64,000 nucleotides of DNA, from the NCBI RefSeq assembly GCF_003018255.1, contig NZ_CP027440.1, one strand, 5' to 3'. The DNA comes from Escherichia coli. Its GTDB lineage: Bacteria > Pseudomonadota > Gammaproteobacteria > Enterobacterales > Enterobacteriaceae. This document shows, one piece after another, positions 49,501-52,500 of the stretch (position 1 is the stretch's first letter; each line of letters begins with the position of its first letter). The position numbers were made by a program.

Positions 49501-52500
49501 CTGACTTGTAACAAAAATAAAGATAAAAATGAGAACGAGGATGTTGCCAGTGCTGAAAATATGAACTGGATGCAGGCATTGCGTTTTGTGGCTGCGAAAG
49601 GGCATCAGAAAGCGATTATTGTTTACCATGATACGTTGCAGACAGGAAAATATGACTCTGCGCTGAAATCAACAGTATGGTCCGACTATAAAAATGAAAA
49701 ACTCACTGACGCTATCTCCCTGCGCTACCTGGTACGTTTCACGCTGGTGGATGTGGCAACAGGTGAGTGGGCTACCTGGTCGCCGGTGAATTATGAATCG
49801 AGAGTAATTTTTCCGCCGGCTGGAATAACAAAAATGAGCAATAAAGAACTATCAAATGACCATGTTACGGAAGTGCAACTGTTTAATTTGAAACAAAAAA
49901 CATATGTATCGATGGTGAAAGACTTGGTGAGTCGATTCCAGTAATCGTTATTGTTATGCTGCCGCCTGTAGTTTAGGGCGGGCAGCAAACAGGAGCTGAG
50001 TATTTCTATAATGTAAATATGTTTTTTTATAAAATTATAATATATATTGCCAGTGAATTGCATGTGAGTTATTTTTTTAATTCTTCATAAATTAAAATGG
50101 TATCATCTGCAATGGAAAGAATTGCTATTATCTCTTCATCTTTTTTATATTTTTCTTTTAATGTTTTGTTTCTTTCTTTTAATGGGGTACATTCATTAAT
50201 AATATCATTTTTAGCTGTCATTGAGTCAGTTTCGATATCGAATGCTAAATCTACAAAGCAATAATCTACGTAGAACATAAATCTACGTATATCTTCTGGT
50301 ATGGCTGTGGAAAAATAACGGTATTGCGTGTAAGTGGTTTGATCATCGAATTCGTCTGATTGTACTGAATATGTAATTGTGGCCAGTATAAATAGTAATG
50401 TTAATTTTATAATAATCATTTGCTGGATATCTCATCTGGATTTTGAAAATCTGAAATGTAAGCATTGTTTAGTTGCATGGCTCTTATTTTGTTTAACTCA
50501 GTATAGCATGGATATAGTCGAGAGAATGCCAGACGTCCTACTCTGGCCCCCCAGGTTAGAGCAAAAGAGCATTGAGCAAATCTGTAACGTATAAATTCCC
50601 GATTAGAAGATTCTAGTCTTTTTAAAGAAATAACTGCTTCTTTTCTTATTGCTTCGTCCTCATCGTTATTCCATTTTTTAATTTTCTCTTTTATATTTAC
50701 TTCTGCTTTTTTAAGTGTAATAGTGCTCATAATAAATGAATTTTTAACACAATCAACAAATTCAAGTTCATCAACGCCACTACATTCTTTAGACATGGAA
50801 ATGTCAAATGCCAGACATTTTGTACATGAGAATGTAAGCAGTAGAATAATTGTTATTTTTCCCATTCTCATAACACTCTGTTTTTTGTGAGCAATGTATA
50901 AACGAACTGAAGTTTTATTGCATACTTGGGATCTCCACCACCATTATAATTCATCGCTACATTTTTTATTGTGATAGGTTTCCATCCAGTAATTATTACT
51001 TTCATGGATGCTTTTTGATAATATAAAATATCTCCCGGGTGTATTTTATCGAGATTTTTTCCAGGGTTGTTTTTCGTTAAGTTAGGTATGGTCGTTTTTC
51101 TCTCTTTTCTGATGTTGTCAGCCAAATCGCCTTTTTGGACGATGACGCTATATAGAGTTGAGTCATATTGATCGATAGTTGATTCTTCCTTTGTATTAGA
51201 AAGTTTCATCATTAAGTAAGTAATTGCTGCTTTGATATTCTCTTCTGGAGAGCCAGTTATTTGTTCTTTTGCCCAGTAATTTCTTTCTGGATCTTTTAAC
51301 CCATTGAATGCTTTGTTTCTCCATTGTGGTGGGGTAACAAGGGCTGCGGATTTTTCTCCAGAGATTAAAGCAGGCATCGCTTTATCTTTCCGAAAACGAC
51401 CAATTTGTAATGGATAACCATTCCACTGAGAAGTATTTGCCGCATCGTTTTCAGTCCAAAGCATGGCTTTTATTATATACCAATCCAACGGCTGAAAGTA
51501 TGGAGTGCTGGACAAATGAATGTTGATTTCATTAACAGATTTTAAAATTAATAAGTCATATTTATTCCATTCTTTATGATTGCTCACAAATGCCAACTCT
51601 CTTATTTTTTTCCATTTAAAAAAATCACTTTCATCTTCTGTTATTCTTGATGCGAAATCTTGCCTTAGTTGAAATGGGAATTTTTCATTAAATAACGTAC
51701 TGTCAGTGCTTGTATTTTTGCTTTCACTGTCTGATGTTGAAGAGTGTAAAATATTGTTAGCCATTATAATAATCCCAGATATTTTTAAAAAAGACGATCT
51801 TCCCATAAACTGTATGCACTAGTGCCAGCGGAACAATGCTCCCATATAATTGACTCATAACTGAAAGAAACTGACTCTTCGGGTTGAATGCTGTTATCAA
51901 CAACAATATGTGATATAGAGACATGAATGTCGCTTATCTTTGCTCCAGTTAATTTGATTTTATAGTACAGTTCATTAATTCCAAATTTATTTGTACGATA
52001 AAAGGAAAAGTCACATGTCAATAATTCATTGTCGCAAATTGCTTTGCCTAATAAGGGTGATGCTTTATCTATAGGTTTTTTTATTGTCAAATGATGATGG
52101 TTGACGTTTTGATCTCGATTTAATCCATGCATGAATTCATAAATCATAATTTGATCAATGTGTGCTGTTTGAGCTTTATTTCCAATGGATGGTTGTGATG
52201 AACAACCACTTGAAATGAGCCCTTGATTATCACCATTTAGTGTTAAATAAATTAAATTCGCCATTTAAAACTCCTTTGTATTCATGAATGTTATTGAAAT
52301 TCAATGTCTTTTTTTATCGTCGGTATCGTATTATTCTTCAGCAGCAGCCAGCGACTTAACACGCCGTCCATCCGCTCGTTAATCTGTTTTTCCAGCGCAT
52401 CTGTATTCTGCTTCTGCGCACGGGCATCCTGGTACTGCGTCAGCAGGGATTCCAGAGGTGTTTCCTGCCCCAGTCCCCGCTCCGCCTGCCAGATGACATT

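Follow-up and report, generated by a model that had tools for sequence, protein, structure and literature searches.

A small gene paired with the DUF1311/LprI immunity gene of an Hcp-linked effector module in Escherichia coli: evidence for a two-gene cassette

Gene B and the effector module of the window

We analysed a stretch of 64,000 nucleotides from Escherichia coli (assembly GCF_003018255.1, contig NZ_CP027440.1), hereafter the window, and describe gene B, a small gene at the end of an effector module of a type VI secretion system (T6SS). Gene B is a minus-strand open reading frame (ORF) at 50069..50419 that begins with ATG and codes for a precursor of 116 residues. The site is the E. coli T6SS-2 island at tRNA-Asp (aspV), and the gene order in the window is Hcp, a LysM/transglycosylase effector (Etse4 ortholog), gene A of the DUF1311/LprI family (Etsi4 ortholog) and gene B. 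To judge from sequence and gene context, B takes second place in a conserved cassette of two genes; it did not diverge from a copy of A, nor is it an orphan left stranded.

The tube protein Hcp (TssD; 51785..52264, minus strand) is recognised by Pfam T6SS_HCP with 2e-23 and by NCBIfam TssD with 1e-58. It lies directly upstream of the effector and is its presumed carrier. The effector (50868..51764, minus strand) is an ortholog of the ancestral Etse4. It has 298 residues if counted from Met15, which is the common form of this protein with a cluster of 574 member sequences, and its ORF reaches 51806 (312 residues). In the alignment, the motifs W-T-E, Q-I-G and Y-N-(G/I)...G-D..Y of its transglycosylase-like catalytic domain are invariant and surround an inserted LysM domain, and the insert matches LysM domains of the PDB in a profile search (E 1.4e-9). 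The effector appears to consist of one globular catalytic domain plus LysM. The Prokaryotic Genome Annotation Pipeline (PGAP) splits this gene (50868-51806) into a 198-aa protein, called 'hypothetical' or 'peptidoglycan-binding', and an upstream pseudogene fragment called 'incomplete', and it does so even where the ORF runs continuously over 298-312 residues, as in the window. A real nonsense mutation of the effector (TTA to TAA) is found only in O157:H7; the effector hidden Markov model (HMM) matches in two pieces in locus L004 and in one piece in the window and in L001-L003.

Gene A (50416..50871, minus strand) is an ORF of 151 residues with a signal peptide. Effector, A and B lie beside each other on the same strand, each overlapping the next gene by 4 nt. 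The stop of the effector overlaps the start of A in the sequence at 50868-50871, and the overlap between the stop of A and the start of B at 50416..50419 is of the same type, an ATGA for which the plus strand reads 'tcat', with 4 nt common to both genes and translational coupling between them. In the HMM scan, effector, A and B each occur exactly once in the window, and the two non-homologous genes A and B lie immediately downstream of the one toxin gene. An earlier note on this DNA had described a translationally coupled ORF of 116 residues with a signal peptide, and this description holds, the signal peptide being read by eye. The same note had pointed to two consecutive secreted small proteins after one candidate toxin; A indeed carries a signal peptide as well, and the effector precedes it.

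Read by eye, the N-terminus of B (MIIIK-LTLLFILATITY-SVQS|DEF) is laid out in n, h and c regions like a signal peptide for Sec and signal peptidase I; residue -3 is V and residue -1 is S. The predicted signal peptide comprises codons 1-21 (nt 50357-50419) and leaves a mature part of about 95 residues. An equivalent segment with small residues at -3/-1 and without a lipobox was found by eye in every B homolog. Together with two invariant cysteines, these signal peptides point to a location of B in the periplasm, the compartment of the effector. The invariant residues of the family alignment are P41, C54, I73, C77, K88, K90, Y91, L101, D106 and Y111. AlphaFold2 predicts a three-helix bundle with helices at about 42-64, 67-90 and 95-115 and, with alignment, a predicted local distance difference test (pLDDT) of 79-96. 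C54 and C77 are each located 11.5 residues from the turn between helix 1 and helix 2, where a disulfide would staple the two helices of the putative periplasmic protein. The window allele of 116 residues, which occurs in three complete genomes only, lacks 6 nt at 50405/50406, equivalent to two signal-peptide codons of the common 118-aa allele. Three complete E. coli genomes contain the 3.4-kb stretch from Hcp through effector, A and B to a yafT-like gene with 100% identity.

The gene in RefSeq that is identical to B, WP_001561453.1, is annotated as 'hypothetical protein', and there is no family match for B in Pfam (E<=1), NCBIfam or PADLOC. A Pfam scan of eight aligned B members returned scattered single-member matches, such as TssO with 1.2e-4 in one of them, which we take as spurious. 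The PDB, searched with the profile of the B family, contained nothing credible (best E 0.22). While a word-indexed search with B reached E. coli sequences only, all with at least 88% identity, an exhaustive phmmer search over 1.84 billion representatives recovered three further true relatives (P0018, P0020 and P0021) with 33-39% identity. Two other phmmer matches, P0017 (712 aa, 11 repeats) and P0019 (288 aa), proved on inspection to be unrelated repeat proteins. With an eight-member profile, 69 clusters were retrieved, all of them unnamed. Those with an organism label all belong to Enterobacterales, namely E. coli, E. albertii, several Citrobacter, Salmonella enterica, Hafnia paralvei and Kluyvera, and homologs from Atlantibacter and Superficieibacter were added by genome scan.

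At 27-40% identity, B homologs retain length, signal peptide, both cysteines and the C-terminal motif across genera. The ratio of nonsynonymous to synonymous substitution rates (dN/dS) is 0.10-0.27 for B vs 0.07-0.44 for A, cassettes without an adjacent effector included; by these sequence comparisons B is under purifying selection, also in the effector-less cassettes. Because of this conservation across genera and these ratios, B is more than an ORF formed by chance. The AT-rich region (30-35% GC), the lack of a family annotation and the omission of the gene by PGAP in O55:H7/O157:H7 would suit a chance ORF or a decaying gene without function, but with homologs conserved in this way, with the low dN/dS and with a three-helix core predicted at the above pLDDT we find such an explanation scarcely credible.

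The earlier note had further proposed duplicated or diverged immunity genes or, for B, the status of an orphan kept after the loss of its effector. T6SS loci often hold arrays of immunity genes that are duplicated or orphaned, and related loci do contain cassettes without an effector, yet we consider this proposal very improbable in either form. As for duplication, B has neither sequence nor profile similarity to A, and the two proteins differ in cysteine pattern and fold. Pairwise comparison of B with A by BLASTP gave an E-value of 0.07. The alignment of both family profiles by hhalign gave a probability of 3% and covered the signal peptides alone, and Pfam LprI (PF07007) matched none of the eight aligned members of the B family. 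Assignment of B to DUF1311/LprI (PF07007) was rejected for lack of a sequence or profile match, and B does not display a DUF1311 fold with the four conserved cysteines of A.

Pairing of A and B across genomes

The loci around remote B homologs were read, and each locus retrieved was then scanned with the HMMs of effector, A and B. The counts of pairing comprise about 28 A-B pairs at 13 non-redundant loci from about eight genera. At these 13 loci, the order is always TssM-VasL-Hcp-effector-(A-B)n, and its carriers are E. coli, E. albertii, Citrobacter (4 species), Salmonella, Hafnia, Atlantibacter, Superficieibacter and a Kluyvera-like contig. A and B alternate strictly. We count 0 full-length A genes without an adjacent B and 0 full-length B genes without an adjacent A, with decayed fragments as the only exceptions. 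The stop of A and the start of B are -4 nt apart in the window; for the other 22 pairs, this distance ranges from +2 to +9 nt, as compared with the much longer spacers of 125-320 nt that separate the four pairs of L005 from each other. One effector is accompanied by four intact pairs in L005 and L021, by three in L022 and by two in C. youngae, Atlantibacter and L024; L023 holds five A-B pairs, one of them with a frameshifted B. Cassettes without an effector of their own follow the cognate cassette in L005, L013, L014 and L021-L024.

The A-B pair adjacent to the effector matches the effector type. Effectors of the E. coli type are followed by a 'FIRYRFAQC'-type A and an 'IPEDIR'-type B, and effectors of the Salmonella/Hafnia type by a 'VYWCLMDKYQ'-type A and an 'MPQDL'-type B. 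Pairwise identities of A and B co-vary with a Mantel r of 0.94-0.945 (p 1e-4; n=13 and n=24 pairs), and the sequence clusters of both proteins are fully concordant without any shuffled combination. Divergence between cassette types is about equal, with ~30% identity for B vs 33% for A.

Since linkage alone can yield co-divergence of neighbouring genes, B might also hitch-hike with A through tight linkage and protect against a different, unlinked effector or serve an unrelated periplasmic role. The frameshift of B in O55:H7/O157:H7, which is without obvious harm, would fit such a passenger. Passive linkage, however, poorly explains the 1:1 alternation throughout these cassettes and genera, the coupling, the lack of shuffling and the purifying selection. 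The cassette arrays also contain no candidate gene for a second effector, the spacers between the four pairs of L005 being 125-320 nt long with no called gene inside. We therefore hold a passenger role of B to be quite unlikely.

Within E. coli, gene B is present in 364 of 5426 complete genomes with one copy each, and at least 80% of the surrounding 3.4-kb stretch is found in 363 genomes. Every B homolog whose context was read sits in a T6SS island downstream of Hcp and effector. Because B is found only there, it is not a conserved housekeeping gene unrelated to T6SS, the possibility that the earlier note had set against its own idea, and the general idea of the gene as an immunity-side member of a T6SS effector module finds support. 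The orphan form of the proposal does not agree with a fixed A-B pair at 13 of 13 loci. Orphan units in related loci are complete A-B pairs and never B alone, and the window holds an unbroken effector ORF (298-312 aa) whose type matches. Of the interpretation in the earlier note, membership in an immunity module stands, while both the diverged duplicate and the orphan are abandoned.

Some of the loci deserve separate description. L021 (2464-8349; Citrobacter portucalensis) and L023 (1-6366; metagenome, Kluyvera-like) contain two effector genes of different types among four or five A-B cassettes and are compact effector/immunity 'libraries'. One of the two effector genes is frameshifted in L021, and L023 also carries an effector fragment (2254-2421) and the frameshifted B (1584-1995). 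In Escherichia albertii GCA_019516785.1 (L011, 6658-7542), the effector is found in three ORF pieces and the downstream A-B pair is intact; here, immunity is retained after decay of the effector, with both A and B kept. In L025 (2921-3286; metagenome), a distant effector homolog of 519 residues with 35% identity precedes a lipoprotein-like gene that has a C-x17-C motif and may be DUF1311-like, and the contig ends ahead of any possible B-like gene. The contig of the distant effector homolog P0016 stops 122 codons into the next, lipoprotein-like gene, before any position for B.

Role of B, its frameshifted allele and the surrounding island

The effector and gene A of the window are orthologs of Etse4ori and Etsi4 and represent the same module, the synteny of Hcp, effector and DUF1311 gene being common to both. 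The C-terminal fragment of Etse4 is toxic in the periplasm and only when sent there, and Etsi4 rescues this toxicity (PMC12981562). For the Salmonella homolog of the effector, a transglycosylase domain was detected by HHpred, and deletion of effector and immunity gene in S. Dublin led to sensitisation, by 1.5-fold only (PMC8867033). The Salmonella module has the layout of the window locus, as seen in an S. enterica genome (L020), and the S. Dublin deletion mutant apparently kept a B homolog that was not mentioned. Gene A is an immunity protein, which is supported by these experiments on its orthologs.

On balance, and with modest confidence, we consider B to be the obligate partner of the DUF1311/LprI protein A in a two-gene periplasmic immunity cassette against the Hcp-linked LysM/transglycosylase effector (Etse4; SED_RS06235 in Salmonella). 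We infer the role of B in immunity, as a partner or co-factor of A, because both proteins bear signal peptides, A is supported as an immunity protein, the two genes are coupled and orphan cassettes keep both of them under purifying selection. In such a cassette, A and B would both be exported by Sec, translational coupling would provide them in near-equal amounts, and they would act in the periplasm, where the incoming effector would attack peptidoglycan. A would block the effector enzyme, as shown for A orthologs, and B would bind A, possibly the effector too, and would stabilise or sharpen neutralisation. Whole A-B cassettes would be duplicated and exchanged as units, by which effector-less cassettes could accumulate, and these would protect against effector variants of rivals.

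Contact between the two proteins was modelled with AlphaFold2 as a fused chain of mature A, a (GGGGS)5 linker and mature B, using a paired alignment of 21 sequences. The predicted template modelling score (pTM) of this model is 0.74 over 250 residues, of which 49 are disordered. If domain A alone, which is half of the chain, were confident, we estimate that a pTM of ~0.45-0.5 would be expected. From the difference, both domains are taken to be confidently placed relative to each other, and the model hints, indirectly, at an A-B complex. As a further step, we put forward tentatively that A and B are an obligate heteromeric periplasmic inhibitor, with which two unrelated proteins would for the first time make up a T6SS immunity system directed at a cell-wall effector, and that the cassette and not the gene would be duplicated, exchanged and stockpiled as orphan defence.

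B could instead act as a second immunity protein in its own right and bind the effector on a surface that A does not use, without any need to touch A and with either protein alone being at least partly protective. The Tde5-Tdi5a-Tdi5b system offers a precedent, in which non-overlapping toxin surfaces are bound, and the divergence of B between cassette types, as fast as that of A, is expected of a protein that tracks a polymorphic toxin. Rescue by A alone in EHEC (enterohaemorrhagic E. coli) and the slight sensitisation of the S. Dublin mutant, which had lost effector and A and apparently kept B, agree with independent action as well. Against it stand the contact of B with A that the fused model indicates, though binding to the effector could coexist with it, and the make-up of the effector, apparently one globular catalytic domain besides LysM. 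We regard independent action as unlikely, but as the main rival reading.

Several points weigh against B as an obligate partner of A. The co-divergence of adjacent A and B is, as noted above, also expected from linkage alone, and the A-B contact comes from a single fused-chain prediction with a shallow alignment and an artificial linker, a setting in which helical domains can pack spuriously. Another point is a frameshift. In the B alleles of O55:H7/O157:H7, a single G (window 50140, minus-strand gene) is deleted in the alignment, the frame shifts after residue 93, and a 98-aa protein without helix 3 results. The B HMM covers positions 1-96 of 118 only in L003 and L004, and gene B is left without annotation by PGAP in O55:H7/O157:H7. 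Judged by match length, an intact allele of 116 or 118 residues is present in an estimated ~60-70 of the 364 carriers, from isolates as diverse as human, poultry, pig, mink and water, and the remaining carriers, that is most of them, have the deletion of the O157 type. A is intact in O55:H7 although B is frameshifted, and the ancestral effector gene of O55:H7 is intact as well according to Sun et al. (PMC12981562). Etsi4 of EHEC was by itself sufficient to rescue E. coli BL21 from the effector in the periplasm, in an experiment that covered only the 198-aa C-terminal effector fragment (PMC12981562), and B is already truncated in the EHEC strain concerned. Because O55:H7 combines intact A and effector with a frameshifted B, and because Etsi4 alone was sufficient for rescue of BL21, B is possibly dispensable for basic self-protection; the data suggest this at least for conditions in which the T6SS is poorly expressed. 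Alternatively, the T6SS of the O55:H7/O157:H7 lineage is reportedly degenerate, which may have relaxed selection on B.

The deleted G lies directly 3' of an A6 run. Several O157:H7 or O157-like genomes (matches H90, H103, H104, H106 and H112-H115) show a match of 357 bp together with an annotated gene, vs 356 bp for the usual frameshifted allele. From these match lengths, the frame of B may have been restored, or never lost, in some O157 sublineages.

Upstream of the module, 5' of Hcp, the window contains a VasL/TssA-like gene and TssM. The VasL/TssA-like gene (52291-53730, minus strand) has a 1-nt insertion relative to O55:H7 around 52307, near its 3' end, which alters the last ~25 residues and shortens the ORF; PGAP labels the identical gene of strain DETEC-S792 as 'frameshifted'. 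Given this insertion, the T6SS of the strain from which the window derives may be impaired. The G+C content is 30-37% in the block of Hcp, effector, A and B (49800-52200), 54-57% in the upstream T6SS core (52600-55000) and about 50% in flanking housekeeping genes. By composition, this cargo block looks like a module that was acquired or exchanged separately.

On the other flank, B is followed by a convergent yafT-like lipoprotein gene (Pfam PF25851; 49144..49944, plus strand) and then by tRNA-Asp, dnaQ and rnhA. A G+C-rich hairpin without a U-tract is predicted by folding between the convergent yafT-like gene and B at 49952..49991, with no strand assigned, and may mark the transcript end of both genes or stabilise their transcripts. 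The consensus terminator scan called no terminator 3' of gene B. The yafT-like gene and the last immunity cassette run convergently towards each other in E. coli, Hafnia and Citrobacter (window 49144-49944, plus strand; L018 9492-10277; L024 7495-8259; L016 10558-11385), and the chromosome around it differs in Hafnia, where the psp operon is found, and in Citrobacter. It is the T6SS island and not the core genome that the yafT-like gene seems to move with, a hint at a role connected with T6SS.

Known dual-immunity systems and meaning of the cassette

T6SS immunity proteins of the Rap1a/Rap2a/Tai4 type are small, all-helical, disulfide-bonded and periplasmic, and B is similar to them in size, signal peptide, helical fold and likely disulfide. 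Orphan immunity arrays are known from the auxiliary clusters of Vibrio cholerae and from the acquired interbacterial defence of Bacteroidales, and tandem effector-less cassettes likewise occur in the loci of B. These arrays repeat a single immunity gene, whereas the B loci repeat the two-gene A-B cassette. The idea of an orphan immunity array is also mentioned in the report on Tde5 (PMC13392607).

The best functional analogy for A and B, without any sequence relationship, is Tde5-Tdi5a-Tdi5b of the Pseudomonas aeruginosa H4-T6SS, in which one toxin is directly followed by two immunity genes without structural relationship (PMC13392607). Tde5 is a cytoplasmic DNase, the dual arrangement is infrequent and Pseudomonas-specific according to its authors, and Tdi5b is also found in other contexts (PMC13392607). 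In contrast to Tde5, the effector of the window is a periplasmic cell-wall enzyme, and the A-B pair is invariant across the effector family. Unlike Tdi5b, B was never found outside the pair, and A-B also persists in effector-less cassettes. For Tle1AH-Tli1/Tli2 of Aeromonas hydrophila, both immunity proteins are required together (PMC7245790). This system and TseL(PA)-TsiP1/TsiP2 (PMC9927574) share with A-B the arrangement of one periplasm-acting effector beside two immunity genes that bear signal peptides. Tli1/Tli2 and TsiP1/TsiP2 are, however, homologous within each pair (both DUF2931, or 92% identical), while A and B are unrelated.

Our literature search found no paper describing gene B or its family; the paper on SEN1005 (ROD9 island) concerns a different gene. 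The T6SS effector-immunity module as such is of a known kind. New is the invariant cassette of two unrelated, predicted periplasmic proteins that persists as an orphan unit, for which there is one loosely analogous precedent, from 2026.

Effector-immunity modules are usually taken as one toxin plus one antidote, and screens, deletion constructs and cross-protection experiments are built accordingly. The B family, unnamed so far, is part of every copy of a module that was studied twice as a two-gene unit, in E. coli O157:H7 and in Salmonella Dublin. If the partnership of A and B is true, B would represent a new family of immunity proteins, and the Etse4/Etsi4 and Salmonella LysM/LysMI modules would have to be redrawn as three-gene modules. 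A contribution of B could help to explain the weak 1.5-fold phenotype of the Salmonella deletion of effector and immunity gene that left the B homolog in place, and orphan immunity arrays in Citrobacter, Salmonella and E. coli would be read differently. The A-B cassette would then stand as a second and much more widespread example beside the single recent case of dual non-homologous immunity.

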